From contig JBBSAP010000002.1 of NCBI GenBank assembly GCA_038252165.1, positions 51,892 to 115,891 on the forward strand: a DNA stretch of 64,000 bases. The letters run 5' to 3'. The notes under the pieces were generated by a model. It was given only the letters and a program-made list of their open reading frames with translations, was not told the DNA's origin and made no database searches. The position numbers were made by a program, and so were the translations under genes. This document shows, piece after piece, positions 2,441-51,354 of the stretch. The first letter of the stretch is position 1. Every line of letters begins with the position of its first letter. This DNA comes from Bacteroidales bacterium (GTDB lineage: Bacteria; Bacteroidota; Bacteroidia; Bacteroidales; VadinHA17).

Positions 2441-4386
2441 TGGAAAAGAAACAAGGGCATCTCGATATCAGCAGGCTCTCCTTCGGGGGATTGATCATAA
2501 CTCTTGGGATTGTATTCGGCGATATTGGCACCAGTCCTCTCTATACAATGAAAGCTATCGTTCTTGGCGGTGCCGGGAACTTCAACGAACTTCTGATTTA
2601 CGGTTCATTATCATGTATCTTCTGGACACTAACGCTTCAGACGACCATCAAGTATATTATCATTACTTTAAAAGCCGACAATAAAGGAGAAGGGGGCATA
2701 TATGCACTATTCGCACTTATTAAGAAGAAATCATCATGGGCTGCGGTATTGACTATGATCGGAGGCGCTGCCCTGCTCGCTGACGGGGTTATAACACCTT
2801 CCATAACTGTCACCTCTTCTATTGAAGGATTAAGGCTTTTCAATCCTGATATTCCTGTGGTTCCTATAGTCCTTATAATTTTTGCAGTGCTTTTTTTTAT
2901 CCAGCAGTTCGGGACAAATATTGTAGGCTCATCGTTCGGCCCGATGATGGTCGTATGGTTTTTAATGCTTGGAGTCATCGGTTTTTCCCAACTTGTTAAT
3001 TATCCTGATATAATAAAATCGGTAAATCCTGTTTTTGCCATAAAATTCCTTACCCAATATCCGGGAGGATTTATCCTGCTTGGGGCTGTTTTTCTGTGTA
3101 CAACAGGTGCCGAGGCGCTATATTCTGATTTGGGCCATTGCGGCAGGAAGAATATTCGTATCTCCTGGATATTTGTAAAAACAATGCTTTTATTAAATTA
3201 CTTTGGACAGGGAGGGTGGCTATTGACAAATAAGATTTCAGGAGATGATTTTAATCCATTTTTTACAATCGTGCCTGGATGGTTTCTATTTCCAGCCGTT
3301 CTCATTTCGACAGCAGCTGCAATAATTGCCAGTCAGGCTCTTATCACAGGCTCATTTACGCTTATAAGCGAAGCAGTTTCACTTAATTTCTGGCCCAAGA
3401 TCAGAATCTCATACCCGACTCATGTCAAAGGTCAGGTTTACCTGCCTTCCATTAACTGGTTCCTCTGGATCATGTGCAGTCTTGTTGTATTATATTTCAG
3501 GAAATCCTCGAATATGGAGGCAGCATACGGACTGGCAATTACAATTACAATGATAATGACCACCCTGCTCTTATCATATTACCTCTATCAGAAGAGTACA
3601 CATCGTCGTTATTCACTGTTGATGCTGATTATATTCCTTACAATTGAAGGCAGTTTTCTAATTGCCAATCTGCATAAATTCAAATACGGAGGCTGGTTCA
3701 CCCTGCTGCTTGCTTTGATATATTTCCTTATAATGCTTGGCTGGTATTTTGGACGGAAAATAAGGAACCGGCATATAACATTCGTAAAGCTTGACGGATA
3801 CCTTCCAATTATTGAGGATTTGAGCAAAGACAAATCAGTTCCGATAACAGCCACCAATCTTGTATATCTGATAAAAGCCAATAATAAGGATCAGGTGGAG
3901 GCAAAGGTCCTTTATTCGATTTTTCAGAAACAGCCTAAAAGGGCTGAAGTCTATTGGCTGCTTCATGTAGACAGAGTTGATGATCCGTACAGGTTTGAAT
4001 ATGAGTTCGAGCAAATAATACCGGGGATTCTGATAAGAGTCGATTTTCATATCGGATTTAAAGTCGATCCCAGGATCAATCTCTATTTTAAAGAGGCACT
4101 TGAAGATCTTGTTAAGTCGGGAGAAATAAGCCTGAAGAGCAGCTTTAATTCTTTGAAAAAGCACGACTTCCCGGGCGATTTTAAATTCATTATTATCGAG
4201 AGGATAATGATACGCGACTTCAAATTGTCAAATTGGGAGAACTTCATTCTTACCTTAAACAGGATAGCTCAGGTGATAAGCTTACCGGAGATCAGAACTC
4301 TTAAGCTCGATCCGACTAATACTATTACGGAACAGGTACCGATTATTATCGATCAGACTCGCCTGAAACGCATCAAACGGGTATGA
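2440..4386 (+). CDS. kup: KUP/HAK/KT-family potassium uptake transporter (copy 2, tandem paralog)
   Basis: 648 aa and colinear with copy 1 over its full length (GIVFGDIGTSPLYT, GAEALYSDLGHCG). Its start overlaps the upstream stop (TAATG at 2438-2442). Confidence 0.93.
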   Translation: MEKKQGHLDISRLSFGGLIITLGIVFGDIGTSPLYTMKAIVLGGAGNFNELLIYGSLSCIFWTLTLQTTIKYIIITLKADNKGEGGIYALFALIKKKSSWAAVLTMIGGAALLADGVITPSITVTSSIEGLRLFNPDIPVVPIVLIIFAVLFFIQQFGTNIVGSSFGPMMVVWFLMLGVIGFSQLVNYPDIIKSVNPVFAIKFLTQYPGGFILLGAVFLCTTGAEALYSDLGHCGRKNIRISWIFVKTMLLLNYFGQGGWLLTNKISGDDFNPFFTIVPGWFLFPAVLISTAAAIIASQALITGSFTLISEAVSLNFWPKIRISYPTHVKGQVYLPSINWFLWIMCSLVVLYFRKSSNMEAAYGLAITITMIMTTLLLSYYLYQKSTHRRYSLLMLIIFLTIEGSFLIANLHKFKYGGWFTLLLALIYFLIMLGWYFGRKIRNRHITFVKLDGYLPIIEDLSKDKSVPITATNLVYLIKANNKDQVEAKVLYSIFQKQPKRAEVYWLLHVDRVDDPYRFEYEFEQIIPGILIRVDFHIGFKVDPRINLYFKEALEDLVKSGEISLKSSFNSLKKHDFPGDFKFIIIERIMIRDFKLSNWENFILTLNRIAQVISLPEIRTLKLDPTNTITEQVPIIIDQTRLKRIKRV

Positions 4387-7335: not shown

Positions 7336-7424
7336 GAGGATCCCCGATTTGTATGGCAATTTAAGAAAAATCTGAAATAACTGATATGTTTCTGATAAAA
7401 GATAGTAAATTTACCATGTCGAAA

Positions 7425-7507
7425 ACGGGGTGCCTTAATATTACGGGCTGAGATCATACCCTTACACCTGATCCGGGTAATGCCGGCGAAGGGAAAAAGC
7501 ACCCCCT
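7425..7507 (+). promoter_or_regulatory. TPP (THI-box) riboswitch
   Basis: ggggtgccttaatattacgggCTGAGAtcataccctTACACCTGATCCGGGTAATGCCGGCGaagggaaaaagcacccc. It contains the CUGAGA and ACCUGAUCnGGnUAAUGCCnGCG cores. The P1 stem is ggggtgc (7427-7433) paired with gcacccc (7499-7505). It lies 27 nt upstream of the receptor ATG. Confidence 0.9.
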
Positions 7508-7533
7508 GACATTTATGAAATTATAAATAATCA

Positions 7534-9963
7534 ATGAAAATCCATTTTTCATTCCTTTTTATTGTTTTCATTTCAGCTTTACTTTTCAATCCGGAATACC
7601 TGAACGGTCAAAGCCTGAGAGGGAAGGTGACTGATTTAAATGACGATCCGCTTGCAGGAGCAAGCATTGCAATTGCCGGTACATATAACGGCGTACAGTC
7701 AGGAGCCGACGGAGTTTATGGCTTCAGCGGACTGAAGCCGGGTAACTATACCATCCGGTTTTCATACATTGGCTATGAAACACTGGTTAAAGACCTGGAA
7801 ATTGTAAACGACACGCTTCTTGATGTTAAGCTCAGTCCGATGGCCATAATTACCGGCGACGTGATCATAAGTGCAACCCGGGCAGGCGATAAGGCTCCGC
7901 TTGCCTATACAAATATTGCCGGCGATATTCTTGAAAAACGTAATTCAGGACAGGATATGCCTTATCTTCTGGGCCTCACGCCATCATTTATTGAAACATC
8001 AGAGGCAGGCAATGGCATCGGCTATACCAGTATGAGGATACGGGGAACTGACGCCAGCAGGATCAATGTAACTATCGATGGCATTCCGCTTAATGATCCT
8101 GAATCACAGCAAGTCTTCTGGGTTGACCTTCCTGACCTTGCTTCATCAGTTGACAATATCCAGGTGCAGCGCGGTGTCGGCACCTCTTCAAATGGAGCGG
8201 GAGCTTTCGGGGCTTCAATTAATATTCAGACAAGGGGTATTGAAAATGAGCCATTTGCTGAGATAAATTCATCAACAGGTTCATTCGGCACCTTTAAGAA
8301 TAATATTACGGCAGGGACAGGACTGCTTAAAAACAGATTCGCATTCCAGATGCGCTATTCTGATCTGCGAAGTAACGGGTACATTGAACGTACTGGTTCA
8401 GAACACAATTCGGCTTTTATGAGCGCTCTTTACAGGTCGGGAAAATCGCTTCTTAAAGCGAACATAATCCTCGGGAAAGAACATACCGGAATAGGGTGGT
8501 GGGGAGTCCCGGCTGATATGCTGGCTGTAAACAGGAGATACAATCCGGCAGGGGAGTACACTGATGAAAATGGAGTAATCCATTACTATGATAATGAGAG
8601 TGATAATTATACCCAGAATCATTACCAGCTTATTTACAGTCTTAGATTATCCGGAAATCTGTCTCTTAATTCGGCTCTTCATTATACAAAAGGGAAAGGC
8701 TATTATGAGGAATTTAAAGAAGACGATTCATTTGCAGATTATGGATTGCAATCAGTAACTATTGGTGGTACAACTTTCAGCCAAAGTGACCTGATACGAA
8801 GAAAATGGATGTCGAACGATTTCTATGGTTTAGTCTGGTCGCTGAATTGCAGGAATGAAAAAATAGAGGCCAGTTTCGGAGGAGGAATGAACCTTTATTC
8901 AGGCGATCATTTCGGGCGGGTAATCTGGATGAGATATCCCGGAGTAGAGGAGAGAGATCATCAATGGTACTTCAATAAGGGTAAAAAAGGAGAAGCAGGT
9001 ATATATGGAAAAATGAACTGGTCAGTATCCCGGACTCTCTCTGTTTTTGGGGATTTGCAGTACCGGTATATTAAATACAGTCTCGAAGGAAGCGATGATG
9101 ATCTGAAGAATATCGGACAGATCCACAGTTTCGGCTTCTTAAATCCAAAAGCCGGCCTGTTTCTGGCAATCGCATCAAATCAGGACGCATATCTCTCATT
9201 TTCAGTAGCAAACAGGGAACCGACCCGTACCGATTTCAAGGAGGCCTCAGGTGACAATGAGGCAATACCCCGGTCAGAAAGACTATACGATACCGAGCTC
9301 GGATATAAGCTGAGATTTGAAAAAAGTTCTTTCGCTCTGAACCTGTATGGCATGATCTATAAAGACCAGCTGGTGCCAACAGGGGAGCTGAGCAATGTTG
9401 GGTACCCTATTATGACAAATGTTGAAAAGAGTTTCAGAACAGGAGCAGAAATCACTGCAGGGTTTATTCCTGCTGATTTTATTGCATGGGACTTCAGCCT
9501 TACCCTCAGCAGAAATAAGATTCCTGACTTTACGGAGCATTACATTGATTATAATACATCCGACTGGTCGTCAGAATATAAAAGCAGGAGGCTGGGCACT
9601 GTTGATATTGCATATTCACCATCGGTTATTGCCAGCAGTGATGTGGCAATAAAAATAATCAATGAAATAAGGCTTCATTTGATAAGCAAATTTGTGAGCA
9701 AACAATACTTTGACAATACCATGAGCAGGGAAAGGATGCTCGATCCCTACTTTTTCAATAATGTAATGATCGATATTGAGCCGGAAACAAAGCGTCTTAA
9801 AGATGCCAGTCTGCAGCTTCTCGTTAATAACATTTTCAATACGGAATATGAGAATAATGCTTACGGCGGCAACTGGTTTGAGGACGGAACCGAAAAAAGC
9901 TGGTCATATTTTTTCCCCCAGGCCGGCATTAACTTTATGCTTAAGCTTGGATTGAAATTCTGA
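7534..9963 (+). CDS. TonB-dependent outer-membrane receptor, riboswitch-linked (probable thiamine/thiamine-precursor receptor)
   Basis: 809 aa. Signal peptide, CarboxypepD_reg-like N-terminal domain (LRGKVTDLNDDPLAGASIAIAG), plug (RIRGTDASRINVTIDGIPLND), and a beta-barrel ending in the aromatic ...LGLKF. The substrate is inferred only from the riboswitch and PnuT context. Confidence 0.88.
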   Translation: MKIHFSFLFIVFISALLFNPEYLNGQSLRGKVTDLNDDPLAGASIAIAGTYNGVQSGADGVYGFSGLKPGNYTIRFSYIGYETLVKDLEIVNDTLLDVKLSPMAIITGDVIISATRAGDKAPLAYTNIAGDILEKRNSGQDMPYLLGLTPSFIETSEAGNGIGYTSMRIRGTDASRINVTIDGIPLNDPESQQVFWVDLPDLASSVDNIQVQRGVGTSSNGAGAFGASINIQTRGIENEPFAEINSSTGSFGTFKNNITAGTGLLKNRFAFQMRYSDLRSNGYIERTGSEHNSAFMSALYRSGKSLLKANIILGKEHTGIGWWGVPADMLAVNRRYNPAGEYTDENGVIHYYDNESDNYTQNHYQLIYSLRLSGNLSLNSALHYTKGKGYYEEFKEDDSFADYGLQSVTIGGTTFSQSDLIRRKWMSNDFYGLVWSLNCRNEKIEASFGGGMNLYSGDHFGRVIWMRYPGVEERDHQWYFNKGKKGEAGIYGKMNWSVSRTLSVFGDLQYRYIKYSLEGSDDDLKNIGQIHSFGFLNPKAGLFLAIASNQDAYLSFSVANREPTRTDFKEASGDNEAIPRSERLYDTELGYKLRFEKSSFALNLYGMIYKDQLVPTGELSNVGYPIMTNVEKSFRTGAEITAGFIPADFIAWDFSLTLSRNKIPDFTEHYIDYNTSDWSSEYKSRRLGTVDIAYSPSVIASSDVAIKIINEIRLHLISKFVSKQYFDNTMSRERMLDPYFFNNVMIDIEPETKRLKDASLQLLVNNIFNTEYENNAYGGNWFEDGTEKSWSYFFPQAGINFMLKLGLKF

Positions 9964-9967: not shown

Positions 9968-10570
9968 ATGACAATATCTGATTGGATATCAAATAACTGG
10001 ATCGAAATCTTTGGCGCCGTAACCGGCATAATCTACGTTTTTCTCGAAATCAGGCAGAAGATATGGCTCTGGCCTGTGGGAATAGTAACATCTGCAGTTT
10101 ACATAATCGTGTTTTTCACAAGCAAGTTCTACGCTGACATGAGTTTGCAGGGGTATTACCTTGTAATAAGCTTTGTGGGGTGGTACTGGTGGGTAAAGGG
10201 CACAGGGCACAGGGCACAGAGCACGGAGCAAAAAGAAACTGAAAAACTATTTGTAACAAGATTAAAATCCAAAACAGGTGTTGCCCTGGGAGTAATATTT
10301 ATATTGCTGTACTTTTTGATGTGGTTTGTACTTTCGCGCCTTACTGATTCCCCGGTTCCTGAATGGGATTCATTTATAACATCCCTTTCGATCATCGCGA
10401 CATGGATGCTTGCACGAAAGATCTATGAACACTGGTTTTTATGGATAGTTGTTAATTCTGCCTCAGTAATACTGTTTGCAACAAGAGATCTTTATCCGAC
10501 AGTAATCCTGTACCTGGTTTATCTTGCAATGTCGTTTGTCGGGCTTAAAGAGTGGAAGCGCTCCTTATAA
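9968..10570 (+). CDS. pnuT: PnuC-family inner-membrane transporter, PnuT-type (thiamine) by context
   Basis: 200 aa with about 7 TM segments. PnuC-like WxxxN/W-rich helices (NWIEIFGAVTGIIYVFL..., GWYWW). It starts 4 nt after the receptor stop, under the TPP riboswitch. Confidence 0.8.
   Translation: MTISDWISNNWIEIFGAVTGIIYVFLEIRQKIWLWPVGIVTSAVYIIVFFTSKFYADMSLQGYYLVISFVGWYWWVKGTGHRAQSTEQKETEKLFVTRLKSKTGVALGVIFILLYFLMWFVLSRLTDSPVPEWDSFITSLSIIATWMLARKIYEHWFLWIVVNSASVILFATRDLYPTVILYLVYLAMSFVGLKEWKRSL
10198..10225. repeat. Heptanucleotide tandem repeat (GGGCACA x3 plus a degenerate copy) inside the pnuT coding sequence
   Basis: gggcaca gggcaca gggcaca gagcacg, encoding the loop GTGHRAQST between TM helices. 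Confidence 0.85.
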
Positions 10571-11431
10571 AGTGTCACATTTTGAGAACAGTTTCAGGTC
10601 CCAAACATCAGCAAAAACACGTCCTGCCTGTTGTTCTATCCCATACTCCAGGACCATTTCCAGGGAACGTATATCTGGCAGGGTAAAGATGCCTTTTTCA
10701 AGCAGCTGATCCATTGCCCCGTTTCCAGCTCTTACAGGGATTAAAACGCAGCACTCCACGCCTGCATTGAAAGCAAAATCGAGTGTTCGTTTGGCCCAGA
10801 AAACACCTTCGGATTCCGAAAGGGAAGGTGGACGAAGAAGAATAAATGCTCTTGTGAATATATCATGCTCCATGAGAAAATTTACCGATCCGGTAAAATC
10901 GCTGAGCATCATCCTTTTATTGAGTTTCTTCAGAATTTCTGTATTTACAGTCTCCAGTCCGATAGCGATCTGCAGGTCGGATTTTATCATGTCCCTGAAC
11001 CTGAGGCAATTTTCATTTATTAACGAGGGATGACTTTCAACAATAACTGTTTCGAAACTGCTTATCAGAGAAGCAATTTTAGGGTAATCTTTTTCAGGTA
11101 TTGCTTTTTTATCAAAGAAACTACCGCTGTTGTAAAGTTTAAGATTTTTTGCTTCAGGCATATTATTAAGCGCCCATTCAATCTGGGCAGGGATAGCTCC
11201 TTCAGGAACTGATCTGTCTGTGGTGTTTTTCCAAAGGTCGCACATCAGGCAATGAAAAGGACATTCCCTGTTTGTCAGAAAAATGGTAGCGACATCTTCA
11301 ATAGTCCCTGAAGGAGTCCTTTCTTTTTCTATATTCCATGCATAGGGTTTCTGCGGATCGATACTATTTTTATTACCACGGCAGGATACAATCCACTTAT
11401 CGGTTACCGCAGGGTTCGTAAAATCATTCAT
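10565..11431 (-). CDS. Radical SAM protein (Elp3/TIGR01210/RaSEA-like small rSAM)
   Basis: CPFHCLMCD is a CX3CX2C cluster motif, followed by a TIM-barrel-like region (LYNSGSFFD, IGLETV). The preferred start is MNDFTNP at 11431, 2 nt after the upstream stop. The track start at 11512 would overlap the upstream gene by 89 nt. The 3' end overlaps the convergent pnuT by 6 nt. Confidence 0.8.
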   Translation of the reverse strand: MNDFTNPAVTDKWIVSCRGNKNSIDPQKPYAWNIEKERTPSGTIEDVATIFLTNRECPFHCLMCDLWKNTTDRSVPEGAIPAQIEWALNNMPEAKNLKLYNSGSFFDKKAIPEKDYPKIASLISSFETVIVESHPSLINENCLRFRDMIKSDLQIAIGLETVNTEILKKLNKRMMLSDFTGSVNFLMEHDIFTRAFILLRPPSLSESEGVFWAKRTLDFAFNAGVECCVLIPVRAGNGAMDQLLEKGIFTLPDIRSLEMVLEYGIEQQAGRVFADVWDLKLFSKCDTL

Positions 11432-12752
11432 AGCTTGAAAGAAACTCTTTCCGGTAAGCTGTTTCCTTTTCAGGGAAATGATTGCAGAAGGTATTTGCCG
11501 GTGCTGCACCATGCTGAAAACGCCTTTTGGGGAATACAGGCATGGTTATGCCTGTAACTGCTTTGACTCCCCCGGAAACGATTTGTCCCTTAAGATCATA
11601 TAACTTTTTATGATCCCAGCCTGTAATATCAATGAATGGTATACCTTCTGAGACTTCAATCACATTTGGCAATGTATAAGGGCTGAAAGATTCAAAACCA
11701 AGACTTTCACCTGTTGTATAAGTCCTCATGATTCCCCTGCTCAATCCACCTGAGTAAGTAAGAGAGTGTTTTATTGAATCGACTCCCCATCCTTCATGGT
11801 AAAGCATCAGGTTGTTGAGTACGCTTCGGATTGTAAGTTCCGGATTCTCTTCAATAGGATAGTCCTTCATATTCTCGTTGCCTCCATCGCCGTCAATCAT
11901 GAATTTCCAATCCGGATAGCGTGATCTGATGCCTTGCAAAAGTGCCATATTCATTGTAGCTGCCTGTATATCAAGAGGTTTGTAGTCTTCAACTACCCTT
12001 ACAGTATTCTTCCAGTCGAGAGATGAATAATCTGCTTCAATTACTTCAAGGAAAAATCCCAGATTAAGATCATCAAGGAACTTTTTTGCCTGGGTCAGGT
12101 CTTCTCCCCCTCCGTCAATACTAAGAGTAAAAGCCTTAAGCCGCGATGGGCTTTCACCAAGTTCCCTGAGAGCCTGGTACACCAGAAGGAAAAGAGCTCC
12201 GCTGTCAATTCCCGCTGAAAAAGTAATACCAACAGGTCCGGTGCCGGCGCGGAATTTCAACCATTTCTTTATCTCTTCCAATAAGGTTCTTATGTAAAGT
12301 TCCCCTGTTTCCGGAATATCTGATGAAGTGTATTTGTTCCTTTCAGGTTTAAAGAACCTTTCATAGACCGGATTTGGATCGGGACAGCCCAGAAGCTCTA
12401 TTTTTGTTATATAGTGTGCCGGAACCATCCGTGTATATGAAGGATGGAACTGATGATCGAGGCCCTCTTTTTTAAGATAATCAAAGATGGTGTCAATCCG
12501 TTCAGCAACAACAAGCTCAGGTCCGCCCGGCCTTTTTGCAATGAAATACCGGATTGGACGGCCGATTGATCTTGCCATCCTTATCGTTTTGCCATCAACA
12601 GAAACAAGCGAAAACTGCCCGTCTATTTTCCGTACAGCCTCCACGTTCCCCGATCTGACGGCTTCAACAGCTTCCTCATGCGTCATATTATAAATAGCAT
12701 TCTTTGCCGGATTTGTGAGATCCATCACCTTGTTTACATATTGATTAATCAT
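11424..12752 (-). CDS. Asparagine-synthetase-B-like ATP-dependent ligase lacking the glutaminase Cys (beta-lactam-synthetase/carbapenam-synthetase-like architecture)
   Basis: PP-loop-like ITFSAGIDSGALF (compare SGGLDS). The degenerate N-terminal Ntn domain (DGQFSLVSVDG...RMARSIGRPIRYFIA) has no Cys after the initiator Met. The track start at 12773 is a TTG, and the first ATG (MINQYVNK) is at 12752. Confidence 0.7.
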   Translation of the reverse strand: MINQYVNKVMDLTNPAKNAIYNMTHEEAVEAVRSGNVEAVRKIDGQFSLVSVDGKTIRMARSIGRPIRYFIAKRPGGPELVVAERIDTIFDYLKKEGLDHQFHPSYTRMVPAHYITKIELLGCPDPNPVYERFFKPERNKYTSSDIPETGELYIRTLLEEIKKWLKFRAGTGPVGITFSAGIDSGALFLLVYQALRELGESPSRLKAFTLSIDGGGEDLTQAKKFLDDLNLGFFLEVIEADYSSLDWKNTVRVVEDYKPLDIQAATMNMALLQGIRSRYPDWKFMIDGDGGNENMKDYPIEENPELTIRSVLNNLMLYHEGWGVDSIKHSLTYSGGLSRGIMRTYTTGESLGFESFSPYTLPNVIEVSEGIPFIDITGWDHKKLYDLKGQIVSGGVKAVTGITMPVFPKRRFQHGAAPANTFCNHFPEKETAYRKEFLSSYE

Positions 12753-12786
12753 ATTATATGAGTTTAAATTCAACTAACTATTAAGA

Positions 12787-12861
12787 AGTGCCTAGAGTGC
12801 CTAGAGTGAGCTAAAGTTGTAAAAACTCTAAGTACTCTAGTCACTCCAAACTTTAGTCACT
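12787..12861. repeat. 9-nt unit AGTGnCTAG: 3 direct copies followed by 3 inverted copies
   Basis: agtgcctag agtgcctag agtgagcta ... ctaagtact ctagtcact ... ttagtcact. The last inverted unit contains the stop codon (12853-12855) of the CRTAC1 gene. Confidence 0.8.
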
Positions 12862-14619
12862 TTCTTCCATGATTCCCTTCCCCTCCATTATTGTAATATA
12901 TTTATCTGCAGATACATTTTTGTAAACCTCCTTCTTCCCACCGGTCCAGCTGATCTCAAGCGTATCAATTATTTTTGCGCTGCCCAGGCCAATATGTAAC
13001 CTGGGATCATTATTGCTCAGGTAGCTTGTTGCCCATTGATTGACAAGTACCTGCCTCTTTCCGCCGGTTGTAGCGACAACTTTGGCGGCAATTGTTGAAG
13101 CCGGACCTTTACTGCCTTTCAGCGTTAAACCAAGCCAGTGATTTGCATTGCCACCGTCATTCCTGAGCAAAGAAGCCGTAGCTTTCAGGTCAACATGCGA
13201 GATTATGACATCCATATCTCCGTCATTGTCGTAATCCCATATGGCAAGACCTCTTCCTGAACGCTTTACTTTGAAATAATCCCCATACTGCTTCCCTGTG
13301 TCTTTGAAATGTCCTGTGCCGTCATTCTCAAGAAGTAATGGATATTGAAGCACAAGTTCCTCGGCTGTTCCGTTTGCAGAAACAATATCCAGATCCCCAT
13401 CGTTGTCAAAATCAAGGAAAGCTGCAGCCCAGGCACCCTTCCCGGCCAGGGGGCCCTGAACACCGCTTATTTCGGTAATATCCTCGAAGAAACCGTTGCC
13501 CTTATTGCGGTAAAGCGCTCCATAGTCAAGATCAACCACCAGAATATCAATCAGCCCGTCACCATCTACATCACCAATTGACCCATGCATTGAGCCGCTC
13601 CCTATACCATGGCTGTTGGCGGCCACGCCAATCTCAACACCTACCTCCTTATAAACGCCGTTATCATTTCTGAACATGAAATTAAGCTGATGATCGTTAG
13701 CCTGGAAAATATCTATATCTCCGTCATCATCATAATCATATACAGTGAGCCCCATGCATTTTGAATCGGGATAAAACAGGCTGTTTTTTTTGGTAACATC
13801 AACAAACTTCCCATCAGGACCCTGTTCATAGAGCATTGAAGCCTGTCCTTTATATTCAGATGGCTGGGGCATTAAGTCGGGAGTGGCCGGTGTGAAGTAG
13901 TGGGGATCGAAAGCCAGGAAATTACCAACCATTGCATCGAGCCTTCCGTCGCGGTTATGATCCCAGAATGAGACGCCAATGCTCCATTTAACAAATCCGT
14001 TTAATTTTTCCGGACCCCTAAGACCTGTATAATTTGTTATGTCGGCAAATGTTCCGTTGCCATTATTCCTGTAAAAAACATTCGGACCATAATTAAGCAG
14101 GTAGAGATCCTGGTCCCCGTCATTATCATAATCTATTGCTCCTGCTGCCATGCTCCAGTTAGTGTCATTAATACCTGCCTTCTCTGATACGTCTGTGAAT
14201 GTTCCGTTACCATTGTTTTTATAAAGCCTGTCGGGTGTATTGCTGAATTTTTTTCCCTCCGGATCAGATATGCCTTCAATATATGTTCCGTTCATCATTA
14301 ACAGATCCATCAGGTTGTCGTTGTTGTAATCAAATATTGTTATTCCTGATCCGCTGCTTTCAAGAATATTCCTGTAGGAAAGATCGCCGAATGTATATTT
14401 GAAATCAATCCCAGCTTTTACCGTAACATCGGTAAAAGTGATACTTTTCTTTTGCGCTGATGACTGAAAGGAAAAACTAAGGATAAAAAGACAGTAAAAA
14501 AGAATAACTAATGGTCTATTGATACCCCCTTTCTTATCCCGCGGGGCGGGATGTTTTAGCTCCTTCCCCCTTGGGGGAAGGTCGGGAAGGGGGTATTTAA
14601 AATTAATAATACCGGTCAT
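12853..14619 (-). CDS. CRTAC1-family protein (FG-GAP/VCBS repeats plus C-terminal ASPIC/UnbV domain)
   Basis: Repeated DYDNDGDxDL-type Ca-binding FG-GAP/VCBS blades. C-terminal UnbV block NHWLGLTLKG...GGKRQVLVNQWATSYLSNNDPRLHIGLG...LEISWTGG. ATGA overlap with the upstream gene. The first about 34 aa are encoded by a repeat element and precede the actual signal peptide (VILFYCLFILSFSFQSSAQ), so the start is uncertain. Confidence 0.85.
   Translation of the reverse strand: MTGIINFKYPLPDLPPRGKELKHPAPRDKKGGINRPLVILFYCLFILSFSFQSSAQKKSITFTDVTVKAGIDFKYTFGDLSYRNILESSGSGITIFDYNNDNLMDLLMMNGTYIEGISDPEGKKFSNTPDRLYKNNGNGTFTDVSEKAGINDTNWSMAAGAIDYDNDGDQDLYLLNYGPNVFYRNNGNGTFADITNYTGLRGPEKLNGFVKWSIGVSFWDHNRDGRLDAMVGNFLAFDPHYFTPATPDLMPQPSEYKGQASMLYEQGPDGKFVDVTKKNSLFYPDSKCMGLTVYDYDDDGDIDIFQANDHQLNFMFRNDNGVYKEVGVEIGVAANSHGIGSGSMHGSIGDVDGDGLIDILVVDLDYGALYRNKGNGFFEDITEISGVQGPLAGKGAWAAAFLDFDNDGDLDIVSANGTAEELVLQYPLLLENDGTGHFKDTGKQYGDYFKVKRSGRGLAIWDYDNDGDMDVIISHVDLKATASLLRNDGGNANHWLGLTLKGSKGPASTIAAKVVATTGGKRQVLVNQWATSYLSNNDPRLHIGLGSAKIIDTLEISWTGGKKEVYKNVSADKYITIMEGKGIMEESD
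14522..14596. repeat. G5/C5 multi-hairpin element, type A (outer stem enclosing two hairpins)
   Basis: Outer stem ataccccct (14522-14530) pairs with agggggtat (14588-14596). It encloses atcccgc-ggg-gcgggat and ccttccccc-ttg-ggggaagg. Homologous to 47215..47291. Confidence 0.85.
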
Positions 14620-17600
14620 TTAATTACAATATTAGAATTTCCTCTTAACGCATTTAAATACTCGTCTGCTGTCACAACCCTTGTATTGTATTCCCGGTTA
14701 TATTTCAGCAGTTCCGGATCATCCGGATACTTATCGGTTTCAGAGGGAGGATAACTTTTCATTCCATGAAATGGAAGAGGCAAAACTGTATTGCCGAATG
14801 CTGTATTCAGGTCACCGTCTTTTACCCATCCAACGCTGCGGATAAGGAAATCCCTTTTCCATCCTTTTGCCAATGGCGGTAATGTGCTGGCATTGAAGTT
14901 GATTGTAGTTTCATCACCGGCATTTGTAATAATGTATTTATTATCCGACTCTGACAAGAGCGGCAGTACATCGCCGAATCGTGTGTAATTTCCTGACAAA
15001 TCTCTCCATTTCGGTCCCTTTTCAACAACAGAATAATTGAACCAGTGAGGCCCGTAACGGCTTCCTTTTCTGAAAAGCTCGGAGAAGCCTCTGTAGTGCA
15101 GGTCTGCACTTGAAGGGTTAAGAACACTCCTTACGACTGGAGCATCCGGTAAATCTTCAGCGAAGAATATCTGATCCCAGTATATTTCCATATTTGTCCT
15201 GATCCTTATCCGATGATCTTTTGTAAGGAATTTACCTGAAAGATCAGCAATAACAGTTTTATCCTTACCCATAGGAAATCCAGGGCTGCTGCTAACTGAT
15301 TCCCACCCGCCGTTTTTATTTATTACCTGGATCAACGGAGGAGTTACCCTGATATCATCCGATTGGGATATTGCAACATTTATGCTGGCATCTGTAGGGA
15401 ATATCCATCCATTCATAAAAAGAGATAATCTACCTGTCACATCAATGTTTCCCGGATCAATTATAAGATCCCTCATCTCAGTGATTCCCTGATATTTGCC
15501 CGACCTGAAGCCCGAAAGGTAATTGTCATCTTTCTGAGATATTAAATAAAGAACATCATTGCCGTCTGAATCTTCAGCTGAAACAGGAATATGTTTCTCT
15601 TTAACAGTAAGGATCTTTAAACCCGGGAATGGGGGAGGACCAAACTGTTCAGGAACAAAAATATCCAATGAATCGGGGTGATCCACAGCGACAAGTTCCA
15701 GTTTGTCAATGTAAATGGTCTCCCAGAGTTCAGATGTGACCTGAATTGAATAACTTCCATTGTTTTGTTTCAGTATACCCGGAATCTTTAAATAATCATC
15801 CGAGGCATCTGCAAAGGCATATGAGGTATTGCCACCCATTATGCCGGTTGGCATTCCAAGAGCACTTCTCCATAATATATCCTTAACAAAAACATATTCT
15901 TCCCCGTTCCATCCATAGAGAAAAGGACATGAACCCTTAAGTGTTTGCTCCTCGATAAGGGCCTGGTCGGATCCGGGCATAAAAATGTTCTGAGGCACTC
16001 CGTTTGTCCATCTGATCCTGATGATATCAGCTCTCGAATGACTGCCTATTCCAAAATGGATGTTGGGATCAGTCACAACCATTGTCTCATAGAGATCCCC
16101 GGCACGCATCTCGACTTTGGCCCCGATTCCGAAGTGATTATTTTTGGCGCTGCCTGCTCTCAGCCCAACAAGCTTCATGGTGATGTAATGGTTGTTATTT
16201 CCGCCGTCATTGCGCAGAAGGGAAATGCCTCCATTGAGGCCTGCAATTACAGCATCAAGGTCACCATCATCATTATAATCAAAAATTGTTATCTGTTTTC
16301 CATATTTTACATCATCCGGCATTAGATTGGAAACATTTGTGAAACTTCCCTTTCCGTCATTGTAATAAAGGTAAATTCCACGACCATCTCTTTCCTGTGA
16401 TTCCCCTGCCACCATAAGATCGAGAAATCCGTCATTATTAAAATCGAGGAAAGAAGCATCATATACATTTACTTTTTCAAGCGATCGGAACATTTCTGCA
16501 GTATTCTTTTCCTTCTCAAAGGTACCATTACGCTGATTCCTTAAGAGTGAATGATTCCCCCCTGTAACCGAGCCGATAAAAAGGTCAAGATATCCGTCGT
16601 TATTATAATCTCCGGCCGCAACCGCACCAGCTCCTTCATTCCCTGCCAGGCCGCTTTCAGCAGCGATATCCTTGAAAACACCCTGCCGCTGATTTGAATA
16701 TAAGGAGGTGCCTGCGTTTTTATTGACTACAATAAAGTCGATATCATCGTCATCATCAAAATCTCCAAAAGCTGCACCTGTGGAGATGGTTCCCCCGTTC
16801 TGTGGGCCAAGTTTTGCCGACTGATCTTCAAATGTTCCGTCTGAGTTATTTCTCAAAAGCAGGTTTGAATTTGGCAGGATCTCAAACAGATCAAGATCCC
16901 CGTCGTGATCCATATCAAAGAAAAGAGCCTTTTTACCTCCGGTCCTGCTGCCTGCTTTTGCTTTATCAGTTACATCTACAAATGTTCCATTTCCAGTATT
17001 TCGGTATAGGACATCGCCGCCCTCCTTCATCACAAAAAGGTCAGGGAAACCGTCATTATCATAATCAGCAAATGCAGCAGACGATTCATTACCTGAATGC
17101 TTTAAGCCTGCTTTCTCAGACACATCTGTAAATTTCCCCATTTCATTATTGAACAGAAAATGTTTATAGGAAGAGGATACAGGATCATAACTGCCGGCAT
17201 AAAGATCAATATCACCGTCACCATCATAATCACATTCTTCGGCATGAGCTGAATATCTGAATTCTGAATTTTTACTCCCTTCTGACCTGGGAACAATATC
17301 CAGACCGGCTGCAGAAGATACATCCTTATAACTGATAATATCCAGAAGGGAGGTATTTTCTATTTTCCGGGATGAGGAAGACTGTCTGTCGAAAGTTATG
17401 ACCGGAAAGCCTATCAGGGATCCTCCGGGGCCCTTCAGATCCATTATCCCTGCCTGATAAGGTGAAGTAACCTTCAGGTAATTATGGAAAATTGTAAACT
17501 GGATAATTGCATTTTCCCTGTCTTTCTTTTTCAGTAAAGAAAGTGTCTTATTATAGTATTCGACGGCTTCTTTCGGAAATTCAGGGAACTGCTTATTGAT

Positions 17601-18194
17601 TATTTCCATCTGCTCCATTGCCTTATCGAATTCACCCTTCCGGATAAGAATATCTGTAAGGTTAAGACGCGGGACAAGGTTTGCGGGCGCTTTTTCGACC
17701 AGAATATTAATATAATTCTCACGCTGTTTCTGTGAATCTATGTCAGGCAGGGTTGAAAACAATTCAGAAATTTCATAAAGTATTTTTACATGGTCGGGAG
17801 CAAATTCAAGGGCACTCTTAAGCTCTTTAATAGCCTTATCCCGTTCATTGTTCATCTTGAATACTGTGCCCAGTATAAGTCTTATGTCCGGATCTTTCGG
17901 ATCGATCCTGATTGCTTTGTTCAGCTCTTTTTCGGCTTCAGGGTATTTAGCCATCCTTAAGTAAGTCAGGCCGAGATTTGCATATCCAAACTTATCATTC
18001 GGTGCAAGATCAATAAAATTCAGGAATTCCTTTTCAGCCTCCTCCAGCTTAAACTCTTCAAGATAAGCCAGTCCAAGTGTTTTAGTTGTAATAAGGTCAG
18101 TCGATTTTTGTCCGGATTTTTCTCCACTGTTCCTGCACCCCGGAAATAATGAGATTAAAGCTGTGGTAAGTAATATGAAGTAACTCTTTTTCAT
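14616..18194 (-). CDS. Giant lipoprotein: N-terminal TPR repeats, FG-GAP/VCBS repeats, ASPIC/UnbV domain and a ~450-aa C-terminal region of unknown function
   Basis: 1192 aa. Lipobox LFPGC; TPR-like helices (residues ~40-230); many DxDxDGDxD blades; UnbV block NHYITMKLVG...GIGAKVEMRAG...IHFGIGSHSRADIIRIRWTNG; then an unassigned C-terminal region beginning SCPFLYGWNGEEYVF. Confidence 0.85.
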   Translation of the reverse strand: MKKSYFILLTTALISLFPGCRNSGEKSGQKSTDLITTKTLGLAYLEEFKLEEAEKEFLNFIDLAPNDKFGYANLGLTYLRMAKYPEAEKELNKAIRIDPKDPDIRLILGTVFKMNNERDKAIKELKSALEFAPDHVKILYEISELFSTLPDIDSQKQRENYINILVEKAPANLVPRLNLTDILIRKGEFDKAMEQMEIINKQFPEFPKEAVEYYNKTLSLLKKKDRENAIIQFTIFHNYLKVTSPYQAGIMDLKGPGGSLIGFPVITFDRQSSSSRKIENTSLLDIISYKDVSSAAGLDIVPRSEGSKNSEFRYSAHAEECDYDGDGDIDLYAGSYDPVSSSYKHFLFNNEMGKFTDVSEKAGLKHSGNESSAAFADYDNDGFPDLFVMKEGGDVLYRNTGNGTFVDVTDKAKAGSRTGGKKALFFDMDHDGDLDLFEILPNSNLLLRNNSDGTFEDQSAKLGPQNGGTISTGAAFGDFDDDDDIDFIVVNKNAGTSLYSNQRQGVFKDIAAESGLAGNEGAGAVAAGDYNNDGYLDLFIGSVTGGNHSLLRNQRNGTFEKEKNTAEMFRSLEKVNVYDASFLDFNNDGFLDLMVAGESQERDGRGIYLYYNDGKGSFTNVSNLMPDDVKYGKQITIFDYNDDGDLDAVIAGLNGGISLLRNDGGNNNHYITMKLVGLRAGSAKNNHFGIGAKVEMRAGDLYETMVVTDPNIHFGIGSHSRADIIRIRWTNGVPQNIFMPGSDQALIEEQTLKGSCPFLYGWNGEEYVFVKDILWRSALGMPTGIMGGNTSYAFADASDDYLKIPGILKQNNGSYSIQVTSELWETIYIDKLELVAVDHPDSLDIFVPEQFGPPPFPGLKILTVKEKHIPVSAEDSDGNDVLYLISQKDDNYLSGFRSGKYQGITEMRDLIIDPGNIDVTGRLSLFMNGWIFPTDASINVAISQSDDIRVTPPLIQVINKNGGWESVSSSPGFPMGKDKTVIADLSGKFLTKDHRIRIRTNMEIYWDQIFFAEDLPDAPVVRSVLNPSSADLHYRGFSELFRKGSRYGPHWFNYSVVEKGPKWRDLSGNYTRFGDVLPLLSESDNKYIITNAGDETTINFNASTLPPLAKGWKRDFLIRSVGWVKDGDLNTAFGNTVLPLPFHGMKSYPPSETDKYPDDPELLKYNREYNTRVVTADEYLNALRGNSNIVIK

Positions 18195-18245: not shown

Positions 18246-18406
18246 GATTCCTCATCCCGTCCCGAGTCCTCGGGATCGGGATTCGGAATGACACTGTTTT
18301 TATGGGAGTTTGGGGTAATCAAGGGAGATTAGCAATGGCTAATCTCCCTTGATTACCCCTTAACCAACCACCCAGGCCATGTCATTCCGAGCGTAAGCGA
18401 GGAATC
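18246..18406. repeat. Nested foldback element: GAGGAATC/GTCATTCCGA-type outer arms around a perfect 22-bp core hairpin
   Basis: Left arm is gattcctcatcccgtcccgagtcctcgggatcgggattcggaatgaca. The core is ggggtaatcaagggagattagc (18312-18333), loop aatg, then gctaatctcccttgattacccc (18338-18359). Right arm is gtcattccgagcgtaagcgaggaatc (18381-18406). The right arm overlaps the last codons and the stop of the SBP gene. Confidence 0.88.
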
Positions 18407-19515
18407 TTATTCCCCCCAGTTGTCGGCAATCCATTCATTGTTTTCATTATTTCGAATTTACCCATGCGGTTTCCTTTATCGTCAAACTGAATCAGCCCGG
18501 TTGTCCCTTTGTAACGGATCTGTTTCAGTGACTTCTGAATCATTTCACGGTCGTTTGTCCCAGCAGTTTTGATAGCTTCAATAAGAAGGTTCGTACCGTC
18601 ATAGGCGAATGATGCAGCCATACCTGGCATTTTATTATATGTTTTATGGTACTCCTTAAAGAATAAAAGGTTTTCAGGTCCTGACCAATCACCGGAAGGG
18701 ACAAAAAGAATATTGTCGTATTCCTGGATCTCCCTGGCAGTTAATTCATTTTCATCAAGGATCATTAATGATCCGTAAAGAGGGATTTTTATTTTCTTTA
18801 TTTTTAATTGATTCACTATCTCCTTTGATGCAGAAGGCTTGCAGAATAATACAATGCAATTTGCATCTGCCCTGGCGATCTTGTCAGTTAAAAGGTTAAG
18901 GTGCTGATTGTATTCATCATATGAGAAGTGAAGAGGATCTTGTTTTCCGGATGTTTTTACTGTTTTCATAAAGTTATCAGCTGCCAGTCTGGAATCATAA
19001 TCTTTTCCGGAAATCACTACTATGTTTCTGAATTTATGTTTGTTATAGATATCTTCGAACAGTGAAAGAGCCTGCTGGCGGTCATTCGGCACACAGTTAA
19101 AGAACCATGGAACAAAAGCCTGGGAGAGTGTCGGATCGCCCGACCATGCCGATATAAGAACTACTGTCGATTTTGTTGCAGCTTGTTCAACGAGGTGAGC
19201 ATTGCGTCCATCATGAAATCCAATAAGTGCCCATACTTTCTCATCAAAAATAAGGTTTACTGCCTGTTTTGATCCGGTTCCCCATGGGCCTTCCATGGAA
19301 CGAAAAACTAACTGAAACTTCTGGCCCCTCAGGCCGCCTTTTTCATTTGCATTTTTTATAGCCATTTCAGCACCATGCAAAGCTGAAGTATAGGTGCTAT
19401 CCTGAACAAGTAATCCGATTTTGATAGTCCGGGCATGATTTTCCGGATTCTGGGAAACAGCCTTGCCCGTAATGATAATTTCCAGAAGTATCAGAGTGAG
19501 GCAGACATAAAACAT
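18382..19515 (-). CDS. Exported periplasmic-binding-protein-fold solute-binding protein (Leu/Ile/Val-binding, Peripla_BP_6-like), no cognate permease nearby
   Basis: Signal peptide MFYVCLTLILLEIIITGKAVSQ, then IKIGLLV...GAEMAIKNANEKGGLRGQKFQLV, typical of type-I PBPs. The track start at 19611 reads through a repeat element, and the preferred ATG is at 19515. Confidence 0.75.
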   Translation of the reverse strand: MFYVCLTLILLEIIITGKAVSQNPENHARTIKIGLLVQDSTYTSALHGAEMAIKNANEKGGLRGQKFQLVFRSMEGPWGTGSKQAVNLIFDEKVWALIGFHDGRNAHLVEQAATKSTVVLISAWSGDPTLSQAFVPWFFNCVPNDRQQALSLFEDIYNKHKFRNIVVISGKDYDSRLAADNFMKTVKTSGKQDPLHFSYDEYNQHLNLLTDKIARADANCIVLFCKPSASKEIVNQLKIKKIKIPLYGSLMILDENELTAREIQEYDNILFVPSGDWSGPENLLFFKEYHKTYNKMPGMAASFAYDGTNLLIEAIKTAGTNDREMIQKSLKQIRYKGTTGLIQFDDKGNRMGKFEIMKTMNGLPTTGGNKIPRLRSE

Positions 19516-19518
19516 TTT

Positions 19519-19590
19519 TACCCCTAAATCCCCCAGGGGGGACTTAATTAAAAAACGATAATAAAAACCCCCCATTGGGGGGTAGGGGGT
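19519..19590. repeat. G5/C5 multi-hairpin element, type B
   Basis: tacccctaaatccccc-a-ggggggacttaattaaaaaacgataataaaaacccccc-att-ggggggtagggggt. It fills the whole DAHPS-SBP intergenic space and is homologous to 28844..28913. Confidence 0.85.
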
Positions 19591-19594
19591 GGTT

Positions 19595-20482
19595 TCAGGT
19601 AAATTGGACATTTATATTTTTATATATATCCCTCCCGACAGCCTGTGCAATTTTCTTAAGATCGGTCATCAGCCTTGTAAACTCATCCGGGCTGAGTGAC
19701 TGCTGGCCATCACATAAAGCTTCTTCTGGTTTATAATGCACCTCGATGATGAGGCCGTCGGCACCAGCTGCAATTGCAGCTTTAGCCATAGCAGGCACCA
19801 TCCACCTGTGGCCTGTTCCGTGACTGGGATCTACAAAAACAGGAAGATGGCTCAGATGTTTAAGCATGGGAACCGCGCTAAGGTCAAGAGTGTTCCGTGT
19901 AGTAGTTTCAAAAGTGCGGATACCACGCTCACACAGGATAACCTGATCATTGCCCTGGTTCAGGATATATTCAGCTGCAAGTAAGAACTCTTCTATAGTG
20001 GCCATCATACCGCGCTTCAGTAGTATCGGCTTCCGAAGCATCCCCACTTCTTTCAAAAGCGGGTAGTTATGCATATTCCTTGAGCCGACCTGTAAAATAT
20101 CAGCATATCCTGCAACAAGTTGAACAAGCCGGGTATCCATAACTTCGGTAACTATTGGCAAACCGGTTTCCTTTCTGGCTTCCGCGAGTAATTTTAATCC
20201 TTCCTCTCCGAGACCCTGGAAATTGTAAGGAGAAGAACGGGGCTTGAAAGCGCCCCCTCTCAGGATCATTCCGCCTGCTGACTTAACTGCTTTTGCTGTT
20301 TCCATCAGTTGTTCATTATTTTCCACCGAACAAGGTCCGGCAATTATCACAACCTCTGCAGACCCGATCCTTATTCCGTTCACATCCACAATCGTCGGAT
20401 CAGGTTTTGACTTTCTGTTTACCCTGACCGGGATAGAACATCCACCAATCACTGCAGGATCATTGTAATTATTTGATTCCAT
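19595..20482 (-). CDS. aroF: 3-deoxy-7-phosphoheptulonate (DAHP) synthase, type I-beta, stand-alone (no fused chorismate mutase or ferredoxin-like regulatory domain evident)
   Basis: 295 aa. [44 protein letters not shown] and [10 protein letters not shown] are hallmark I-beta DAHPS motifs (KPRS.PY.FQG distinguishes it from KDO8PS). Confidence 0.88.
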
Positions 20483-20495
20483 CTTTTTATCTCGT

Positions 20496-21818: not shown

Positions 21819-21828
21819 ATAAGTGGAT

Positions 21829-23634: not shown

Positions 23635-23649
23635 TATTGAATTTCATTA

Positions 23650-25683: not shown

Positions 25684-25684
25684 A

Positions 25685-30382: not shown

Positions 30383-30389
30383 CCTTCTC

Positions 30390-31249: not shown

Positions 31250-31630
31250 CTCTATCTTAAATTATTATTGGTTCCCGATACTCATAAAAACTTTTTTCTA
31301 CCTTAATATTTATAAATCTCTTGTTGGCAATATAGTAATTTCCGGTTATTCTTTAATCAGTTTTTAAGATTATGGACTAAGGGCCGATATGTTTTTTATC
31401 ATAAAGCCACGGATATTAAACATCAGCAGCTGATAATCAGTTTATTCACGAAAATTTTTCCCCGGTTCTGACATGTTTTGCCGGTTCTTGATTTATTTTT
31501 TCAGAAGAATAAATTTAAATTTTGTTTTAATATGATTTTAATTTTTCTATATTTGATCTTTCGAATTTCAAATTTAGTTTGATTTTAGAATGAACCTTTT
31601 ATCTAACCTGTTTAACCAAAACAATTGACT

Positions 31631-34750: not shown

Positions 34751-34769
34751 TTGTTAAAAATGATGTAAT

Positions 34770-36570: not shown

Positions 36571-36593
36571 ATTCGCATTCATAATAGTTGTCT

Positions 36594-40673: not shown

Positions 40674-40786
40674 TTGTTCATATTTTTTTATTTTTATTCC
40701 CTTCTCCCGGTGGAGACGGGTGAACGGTGCAGGGATAGGGCAAAACAGACTTATTAAATGAAGTGATTATTTATATTACTCAATAT

Positions 40787-51318: not shown

Positions 51319-51354
51319 AATTTATTTATATTAATTTTTCATAAAATATAAAGA

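Follow-up and report, generated by a model that had tools for sequence, protein, structure and literature searches.

What do an asparagine synthetase-like ligase and a radical S-adenosylmethionine (SAM) protein accomplish together when their genes overlap? The question is raised by a 64,000-nucleotide stretch of DNA from a Bacteroidales bacterium (contig JBBSAP010000002.1, positions 51,892 to 115,891; hereafter the window), in which two adjacent genes encode an AsnB-superfamily PP-loop ligase of 442 aa without a glutaminase nucleophile (11424–12752) and a RaSEA-related radical SAM (rSAM) protein of 288 aa, itself a deletion variant (10565–11431). Coordinates are those of the window, and features lie on the minus strand unless marked (+). 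The ligase was characterized from its open reading frame (ORF), Pfam, TIGR01536, hhalign, an AlphaFold2 (AF2) model and Foldseek, and the rSAM protein from its ORF, TIGR01210 and Pfam; both ORFs were found where a preliminary description, made from the sequence alone, had placed them, with the motifs SAGIDS and CPFHCLMC at the expected sites. Our tentative answer, the leading one among several candidate readings, is that the pair may form the obligate two-enzyme core of an aromatic small-molecule pathway, in which ligation with an external amine would be followed by RaSEA-like radical processing.

The first evidence comes from the arrangement of the genes. They overlap by 8 nt (ATGAATGA, 11424–11431), with the rSAM start codon inside the 3' end of the ligase gene: this ATG precedes the ligase stop by 2 nt, and the junction is read as TAT GAA TGA in the ligase frame and as ATG AAT GA. 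in the rSAM frame. The 2-nt spacing and the coupling had both been claimed at the outset, and the overlap proved to be recurrent. In a scan with one genome per GTDB species, 292 relatives of the ligase were found, and the best 80 of these 292, to which the Bacteroidota counts given here refer, all belong to Bacteroidota (Bacteroidales metagenome-assembled genomes, Rikenellaceae, Prolixibacteraceae, Odoribacter, Flavobacteriaceae, and Maribacter arenosus). The ligase gene is followed by the rSAM gene in 79 of the 80 species genomes, and the overlap, as ATGArTrA, is present at 76 of 77 testable junctions. Similarly, a metagenome scan anchored on the rSAM protein recovered a non-Bacteroidota clade in which the ligase lies at most 500 nt upstream of the rSAM gene in 60 of 65 testable loci. 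These observations support the conclusion that the ligase and rSAM genes are translationally coupled and strictly linked.

Each of the two families has more than 8000 matches in public data, spread over at least four phyla and especially frequent in Bacteroidales of soil, peat, and sediment; beyond Bacteroidota, the ligase family extends to Planctomycetota, Acidobacteriota, Armatimonadota, Balneolaceae, one Berkelbacteria genome, and one archaeon. On the archaeal contig (L088, 9193–11389), the ligase homologue directly follows a haem-oxygenase-like (Haem_oxygenas_2) protein and has no rSAM neighbour; this single case only suggests that the haem-oxygenase-like protein is an O2-dependent substitute for the rSAM enzyme. 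A 782-aa protein encoded after the Berkelbacteria ligase was considered as an rSAM protein and rejected, the alignment being spurious. Apparent ligase–rSAM fusions (P0253, P0308, P0314, P0356, and a 756-aa ORF in L018) are artefacts of frameshifts in high-GC or long-read data and were not used as Rosetta-stone evidence. The phage and plasmid collections that were searched held no copies of the pair, and among the PADLOC defence models only DndC matched it (E 0.005–0.009), within the PP-loop. No description of bacterial RaSEA relatives or of the ligase–rSAM pair was found in the literature searched.

Is the first enzyme simply an asparagine synthetase? Its sole Pfam match is Asn_synthase (34.3 bits, cutoff 21), and source annotations call it 'asparagine synthase (glutamine-hydrolysing)', as would be expected if the protein were a common asparagine synthetase working with ammonia and its position beside an unrelated rSAM gene were fortuitous. 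However, TIGR01536, the model of true AsnB, gives it 30.8 bits where the cutoff is 267.1, and it is not a member. Moreover, only half of a glutaminase domain is present, the protein belongs to a small family of its own (744 representatives at E ≤ 1e-3 among 1.84 billion), and the two genes are adjacent across phyla with a conserved 8-nt overlap. This explanation is effectively excluded.

The catalytic half of the ligase is well preserved. The PP-loop SAGIDS (12201–12218), whose family consensus is SGGxDS, aligns with SGGLDS of human ASNS and E. coli AsnB, and its residues S179, G181, D183, and S184 are invariant in the family. The motif DGDGGNEN (11871–11894) is the equivalent of SGEGSDE in AsnB, with E348 replaced by a conserved Asp289, and the motif PKRRFQHG (11508–11531) carries K409, the counterpart of AsnB K449 (RQKEQFSDG); K409, Q413, and G415 are again invariant. 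In fold and motifs, the protein is thus a competent-looking ligase, predicted to adenylate its substrate and to form a C–N bond.

The N-terminal half is different. An hhalign comparison with E. coli AsnB (NC_000913) aligned ligase residues 22–417 with AsnB 97–458 at a probability of 95%, leaving the first ~96 residues of AsnB, Cys1 included, without any counterpart. What is left of the N-terminal nucleophile (Ntn) glutaminase domain is a remnant of its second half (residues 44–150, 12303–12623), which aligns with AsnB ~118–200. The glutamine-binding residues of AsnB, which we take to be R49 and N74–E76, fall in the region that has no counterpart. None of 83 ligase family members matched the glutaminase models GATase_6 and GATase_7 of Pfam, even at E ≤ 1. 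Another start codon does not restore the nucleophile: in the longest ORF, which begins at a TTG (12773), the first Cys is residue 130, so that no alternative start gives an N-terminal nucleophile. In the absence of a glutaminase, the nitrogen used by the ligase cannot derive from glutamine hydrolysis. The preliminary description had spoken of a degenerate Ntn domain lacking Cys. The Cys is indeed missing, but the first part of the domain is gone altogether and the remainder is conserved rather than decaying: across phyla, 40 of the 107 columns of residues 44–150 are at least 90% conserved, on a par with the synthetase domain. Since its conservation matches that of the catalytic domain, the N-domain appears to be a repurposed domain and not a decaying relic.

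The structural comparisons place the ligase within the asparagine synthetase B (AS-B) superfamily. A search of the PDB with the single sequence gave no match; with the family profile, human ASNS (5e-14) and E. coli AsnB (4e-10) were found over the PP-loop half, and beta-lactam synthetase (BLS), CarA, and TsnB9 were only marginal (E 0.006–0.03, PP-loop region only). The ligase homologues were all called at 442 aa, and an AF2 model built from 83 diverse sequences reached a predicted local distance difference test score (pLDDT) of 91.6, a prior run with 17 near-identical sequences (pLDDT 46) having been discarded. Foldseek aligned this model over its whole length, at 10–16% identity, with BLS (6e-13, template modelling (TM) score 0.61), human ASNS (TM 0.65), AsnB (TM 0.56–0.61), CarA (TM 0.62), and TsnB9 (5.8e-11, TM 0.53). 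The superfamily hallmarks are all present, namely the PP-loop, an acidic residue at the E348 site, Lys at the K449 site, and the two-domain fold, and these data support the ligase being a glutaminase-dead member of the AsnB/BLS/CarA superfamily. By contrast, nothing singles out BLS or CarA: the Foldseek scores for BLS, ASNS, AsnB, and CarA are equivalent, and the neighbour lists of the pair contain no clavam or carbapenem context genes. Because its similarity to the known members is alike, the model would make the ligase a separate branch of the AS-B superfamily, equidistant from BLS, AsnB, CarA, and TsnB9. The earlier proposal of a BLS, CarA, or lasso-cyclase architecture in place of AsnB therefore stands as regards a glutaminase-dead superfamily member, but the fold is no nearer to those enzymes than to AsnB.

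The second enzyme carries an rSAM cluster motif of the CX3CX2C type (CPFHCLMC, 11240–11263) that is invariant in its family. Its sole significant curated match is TIGR01210, the RaSEA model (E 1e-27 to 1e-32 over ~240 residues). The window protein scores 96.6 bits (E 1.5e-27), the full-length homologue P0130 110.5 bits, and homologues from other phyla 87–89 bits, against a cutoff of 212. The protein thus appears, from its sequence, to be a bacterial relative of RaSEA and not a member of the RaSEA family; its assignment to the small TIGR01210/RaSEA class had been right about the closest curated model but overstated membership (97–110 against 212 bits). Elsewhere the matches are weaker: PF04055 (Radical_SAM) gives 17.6–25.1 bits (21.6 for the window copy) against a gathering cutoff of 29.5, the family profile aligns weakly with the barrel of E. 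coli YhcC (169 columns, E 0.004), only 40 columns around the Cys motif align with E. coli QueE, which means that the protein is not QueE-like, and PDB searches with the single sequence and with the profile found no match. The homologues are 313–316 aa long and end in four invariant Cys (C-x1-2-C ... C-x1-2-C); this tail, common to Bacteroidota, Planctomycetota, Acidobacteriota, and Balneolaceae, falls outside the TIGR01210 alignment.

The length of ~288 aa first given for the rSAM protein is correct for the window, but it is that of a deletion variant of a 313–316-aa family, a feature that had been overlooked. Alignments and a DNA comparison with the closest relative, L001, place an in-frame deletion junction, KCD/TL, at 10571–10576 (junction ~10573/10574), where 84 nt between two TGYGACA direct repeats are absent. 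The loss removes 28 aa (RCLDxRxxRLTxMNLxQKFISxIKCTC), including three of the four invariant C-terminal Cys. An identical 288-aa deletion gene is present in the Logan assembly of SRR19962010, which is possibly not independent of the window assembly, and the deletion is probably real and not an artefact of one assembly. A second case of decay was seen in L074 (~11170–11800), where an insertion sequence-like element cuts the ligase at about residue 392 and the rSAM gene is lost. Together, the window deletion and the L074 disruption make the system look dispensable.

The resemblance to RaSEA raises the question of whether the pair acts on nucleic acid, modifying tRNA or DNA of bacteria in an archaeosine-like or 7-deazaguanine-type manner, in parallel to QueC with QueE or ArcS with RaSEA. 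The best match of the rSAM protein and the pairing of a PP-loop enzyme with an rSAM enzyme, which recalls QueC/QueE, would both fit such a role. However, no Tgt, DpdA, QueC, QueD, or QueE genes occur in the contexts read, the ligase is of AS-B type (the QueC Pfam model touches one of 83 members, E 0.15), the alignment of the rSAM protein with QueE covers the Cys motif only, the NCBIfam models yielded no QueC or QueE match, no phage copies were found, and the neighbours are exported proteins and enzymes of secondary-metabolism type; we regard this role as very improbable. Because tRNA and preQ0 genes are missing from the surroundings, the substrate is probably a carboxylate and not a nitrile on tRNA. 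More generally, the neighbour lists of all contexts contain no deazaguanine, tRNA-modification, RiPP recognition element (RRE), B-protein, or leader-peptidase genes. None of the three findings that, by the preliminary description, would have refuted it was encountered, namely an N-terminal Cys exposed by another start, a pair scattered without linkage in other genomes, or an rSAM protein from a well-characterized housekeeping family.

What, then, does the genomic context say about the substrate? In Bacteroidota, the pair ends a conserved same-strand cluster of ~20 kb, which had also gone unnoticed; its end is placed at the pair because the genes downstream vary. The most constant neighbours, directly upstream of the pair in at least 75 of the 80 loci, are two genes for CRTAC1-like FG-GAP/ASPIC proteins identified by Pfam, one of 588 aa and one a 1192-aa TPR fusion, with a lipoprotein signal (12853–18194). 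Further upstream lie, in an order conserved in Bacteroidota, genes for a Peripla_BP_6 binding protein, a 3-deoxy-D-arabino-heptulosonate 7-phosphate (DAHP) synthase (19595–20482; TIGR01361, 404 bits), a second binding protein, and a RidA-like protein of 191 aa (21829–22404), which together span 18382–22404. These are preceded by genes for a propeller protein of 400 aa, a homologue of the hydrazine synthase (HZS) beta-gamma subunit (23650–25692), and a homologue of its alpha subunit (25685–27118), all within 22432–27118, and by a third CRTAC1-like FG-GAP/ASPIC lipoprotein gene (27134–28804). In the window, a two-component system (an OmpR-type regulator and a CusS-like kinase, 29012–31070) heads the same-strand array. 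Read toward the pair, the conserved order is CRTAC1 lipoprotein, HZS alpha, beta-gamma, propeller, RidA-like protein, binding protein, DAHP synthase, binding protein, TPR-CRTAC1 fusion, CRTAC1-like protein, ligase, and rSAM protein; the beta-gamma gene is upstream of the propeller gene in all four loci with a long enough flank. The beta-gamma homologue matches 5c2v_B (1.2e-49) and 5c2v_C (1e-17) and has three CxxCH motifs, and the short alpha homologue matches 5c2v_A (4e-22) and has one.

Between the window Bacteroidales and Maribacter, the proteins of the cluster are 59–80% identical, a level that points to strong constraint or to the cluster having spread horizontally as a whole. The most conserved of them is the RidA-like protein (80% identity to Maribacter), which has an 80-residue N-terminal extension and a weak similarity to the FkbO/Hyg5 chorismatases. 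The only proteins of the cluster that lack export signals are this RidA-like protein, DAHP synthase, the ligase, and the rSAM protein. The upstream part of the cluster matches 'clade III' of a published set of clusters with HZS homologues, in which CRTAC1 lies upstream of alpha, an extra haem motif is present, and two binding proteins lie downstream (PMC12758564); the ligase and the rSAM protein are not mentioned there.

Such neighbours also invite the idea of a cofactor, made or matured by the pair, that would serve the exported propeller and haem proteins, namely the CRTAC1-like proteins and, in Bacteroidota, the HZS homologues. In pyrroloquinoline quinone (PQQ) or cysteine tryptophylquinone (CTQ) systems, cytoplasmic rSAM enzymes serve periplasmic propeller dehydrogenases, and a similar logic could apply here. 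No neighbours are more constant across three phyla than the CRTAC1-like genes; lipoprotein or signal sequences mark the exported proteins but not the ligase, rSAM protein, DAHP synthase, or RidA-like protein; and the halogenase-like flavoprotein found after the pair in other phyla is weakly similar to the cofactor maturases QhpG, LodB, and GoxB. HZS homologues, CRTAC1, and two binding proteins had, moreover, already been seen as a cluster (PMC12758564). Yet a CRTAC1 gene is not within reach in 23 of the 35 long non-Bacteroidota loci, HZS homologues were not seen beside the pair in non-Bacteroidota contexts, the flavoprotein is far nearer to true halogenases, and no gene for a small subunit or a peptide accompanies the pair, all of which leaves a cofactor role unlikely.

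Outside Bacteroidota, the pair keeps different company. In the non-Bacteroidota loci (L085, L089, L090, L091, L092–L171), it forms the first two genes of a trio, and the third encodes a flavin-dependent halogenase homologue, which follows the rSAM gene in 47 of 59 testable metagenome loci. This flavoprotein has halogenase motifs, and its closest solved relatives are the tetracycline 7-halogenase CtcP (1.6e-42) and PltM (2e-40). It also lies directly after the pair in Blastocatellia, Balneolaceae, Pirellulaceae, and one unassigned 5.3-Mb contig, where the proteins are orthologous (33–57% identity). A module of a TPR-CRTAC1 protein, a CRTAC1 protein, and an RnfD-like membrane protein stands beside the trio in 9–12 of 35 long metagenome loci, as well as in Aquisphaera insulae and Blastocatellia, and an NMT1-type ATP-binding cassette importer is sometimes present. 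For P0337, the contig was too short to inform on its neighbours.

Peptides were considered as well, in the form of a RiPP-like modification (RiPP standing for a peptide made on the ribosome and modified after translation), in which the ligase would amidate, cyclise, or nitrilate a peptide carboxylate, in the manner of lasso cyclases, TsrC, and PesC, and the rSAM enzyme would cross-link or otherwise modify the same peptide. Several RiPP classes do have AS-like enzymes with peptide substrates (PMC13060819), and one Blastocatellia locus has an MNIO (multinuclear non-haem iron-dependent oxidative enzyme) and an NHLP-like protein after the halogenase. However, that MNIO neighbour occurs at one locus only, and the cluster gaps of the 80 loci contain no conserved small ORF, the recurrent 'peptides' being fragments of larger genes or a translated thiamine pyrophosphate (TPP) riboswitch. 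Nor do the contexts contain a PqqD/RRE, B-protein, leader peptidase, or SPASM domain. A peptide substrate is accordingly improbable, more so than a cofactor role, and the first impression that neither a precursor peptide nor a lasso B-protein is encoded was borne out by both the neighbour lists and the cluster gaps.

We infer an aromatic small-molecule substrate from the dedicated DAHP synthase in Bacteroidota and the phenol-type halogenase in other phyla. The preliminary description had proposed a carboxylate- or nitrile-bearing small molecule, nucleoside, or peptide; the context favours the small molecule, but lends no support to a nucleoside or a peptide. In a first step, the ligase would adenylate a carboxylate with ATP at the PP-loop site and join it to an amine, the acyl substrate being most likely a shikimate-derived aromatic carboxylic acid, and the conserved N-domain would probably bind the amine donor or the rSAM partner. 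In a second step, suggested by RaSEA homology only, the rSAM enzyme would process the adduct by H-abstraction beside the new C–N bond. The favoured outcome is that the donor C–N bond would be cleaved and the nitrogen kept on the acyl group, following the append-then-cut logic of ArcS–RaSEA. By analogy, because the 8-nt overlap is constant and RaSEA works only when complexed with ArcS, with lysine as the nitrogen donor (PMC11298593), we also suggest that the ligase and the rSAM protein may form a complex. The product could be used, bound, or sensed by the exported CRTAC1-like propellers, the binding proteins, and the HZS homologues of Bacteroidota, and could be halogenated in other phyla.

A more specific version of this scheme, which we consider doubtful, is that the rSAM enzyme replaces the glutaminase: an entire amino acid would be joined by the ligase, via a lysine or alpha-amino group for instance, to the adenylated aromatic carboxylate, and RaSEA-like radical C–N cleavage would then release the donor, giving an O2-independent append-and-cleave amidation whose metabolite or cofactor would be tied to the CRTAC1-like and HZS-like exported proteins of Bacteroidota and Planctomycetota. 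If true, such a nitrogen relay would be a new way of delivering nitrogen to an activated carboxylate, append-and-cleave amidation being undescribed for carboxylates, and RaSEA chemistry, so far a matter of archaeal tRNA, would be extended to metabolites of bacteria.

The same two enzymes could also work without any relay. The ligase would then, like BLS, TsnB9, TsrC, and PesC, make a lasting amide, lactam, or nitrile from free ammonia or from a building block that is retained, and the rSAM enzyme would perform an unrelated radical step on that scaffold, for example methylation, cyclisation, dehydration, or the formation of a C–C bond. What AS-like enzymes make is very diverse, and ammonia is accepted by some of them (PMC13060819); Foldseek finds the ligase as near to BLS, CarA, and TsnB9 as to AsnB; the resemblance of the rSAM protein to RaSEA is only distant, and its additional, invariant Cys4 tail has no place in the TIGR01210 alignment; and a halogenase after the pair is what ordinary biosynthetic clusters would show. 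This explanation does not account for why the sole detectable relative of the rSAM protein is the one enzyme known to remove an appended amino acid, nor for the strong conservation of the ligase N-domain. It is a real possibility, nearly equal to the favoured reading of external-amine ligation followed by RaSEA-like processing.

Several observations weigh against that favoured reading. The aromatic substrate is reached by joining two contexts that do not overlap, DAHP synthase and halogenase: the halogenase is absent from the Bacteroidota loci, and DAHP synthase is absent from four Bacteroidota clusters. With proteins 59–80% identical, gene order may be conserved in part because the cluster spread horizontally in recent times. 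In the RidA-like protein, Ser occupies what we take, from the RidA reference sequence, to be the catalytic Arg site, and the value of this protein as support for imine disposal was downgraded on that account. The linkage has exceptions, in that the Berkelbacteria and archaeal ligase homologues have no rSAM partner and an adjacent ligase is absent at about 3–5 of the 65 rSAM loci. In addition, the rSAM protein reaches neither the RaSEA nor the Pfam Radical_SAM cutoff, the proposed chemistry of the second step would be modelled only on sub-threshold homology to one characterized enzyme, RaSEA, and the window rSAM protein, lacking invariant Cys, is probably defective and may be inactive.

Both superfamilies are well known, and the novelty lies in the strict coupling of a glutaminase-less AS-B ligase to a bacterial RaSEA relative. 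The pair offers a biochemical handle on the cluster with HZS homologues and CRTAC1, whose function recent studies of how anammox arose have put forward as a question, and cultured carriers are available in Maribacter arenosus CAU 1321 (locus L079) and Aquisphaera insulae (WP_165220751 and its neighbour).

Other features of the window deserve mention. The gap of 100 nt upstream of the ligase (12753–12852) contains the direct repeats ctctaggcact and gtgactaRag, each twice. An Rfam scan of the window at gathering thresholds gave no match; a TPP riboswitch at 7416–7512 (+) was missed by this default scan because its score, 50.1 bits, is below the Rfam gathering score of 54.3. It lies upstream of genes for a TonB-dependent receptor (7534–9963) and a PnuC-family transporter (9968–10570), an operon that converges on the rSAM gene and is a thiamine uptake unit unrelated to the pair; a thiamine pyrophosphokinase gene is found at 56856–57623. 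The PnuC protein and the TonB receptor were considered as partners of the pair and rejected, as they stand behind the TPP riboswitch, on the opposite strand, and in only 24 of 80 loci. The PnuC-family protein of the window (9968–10570 (+)) is 36 residues shorter than its closest relative, in L001 (12267–12977), with a full-length Pfam match; among loci, it ranges between 200 and 254 aa in length. The window contains five CRTAC1-like FG-GAP/ASPIC genes in all, the remaining two (36588–39896 and 40763–44083, (+)) being located behind a SusC/SusD pair (31625–36515); further SusC/SusD pairs are found at 49537–54669 and 55100–56842. Two tandem Kup-type potassium transporter genes occupy 482–4386 (+).

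How does the pair compare with known systems? Like AsnB and ASNS, the ligase has the two-domain AS-B fold, the PP-loop, a GEGSDE-type motif, and an equivalent of K449; unlike them, it lacks Cys1 and the first ~96 residues, has Asp in place of E348, is only 13–16% identical, and is coupled to an rSAM enzyme. BLS, CarA, and TsnB9, its best Foldseek matches, are AS-B enzymes of secondary metabolism, and BLS and CarA are likewise without glutaminase activity; those enzymes, in contrast, have no rSAM partner, and no clavulanate, carbapenem, or trichostatin genes are found near the pair. Lasso cyclases, TsrC, and PesC are also AS-like adenylating enzymes that form C–N bonds on carboxylates (PMC13060819), whereas the pair is accompanied by no precursor peptide, B-protein/RRE, or leader peptidase, and neither a conserved small ORF nor, in the neighbour lists, PqqD or Transglut_core marks it as a lasso system.

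Other two-enzyme systems are closer in logic. QueC–QueE similarly combines a PP-loop amidating and nitrile-forming enzyme with an rSAM enzyme in one short pathway, with different families in both superfamilies and in a different context. In ammosamide biosynthesis, an amino acid is the cleavable nitrogen donor for an aromatic scaffold (PMC12715798), although the peptide aminoacyl-tRNA ligase (PEARL)/Amm14 route uses unrelated enzymes (a tRNA-dependent ligase and a flavin/oxidoreductase), a peptide-bound substrate, and no rSAM enzyme. Finally, the pair differs from ArcS–RaSEA in its bacterial hosts, in an rSAM protein that reaches about half of the family cutoff and ends in an invariant Cys4 tail of its own, and in its partner, an ATP-dependent AsnB-type ligase where ArcS is an ArcTGT-like, ATP-independent lysine transferase. 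What it shares with that system is an rSAM protein of the TIGR01210 lineage with an obligately associated partner; in ArcS–RaSEA, this partner first forms a C–N bond to a donor amino acid, and the nitrogen does not come from glutamine hydrolysis (PMC11298593).

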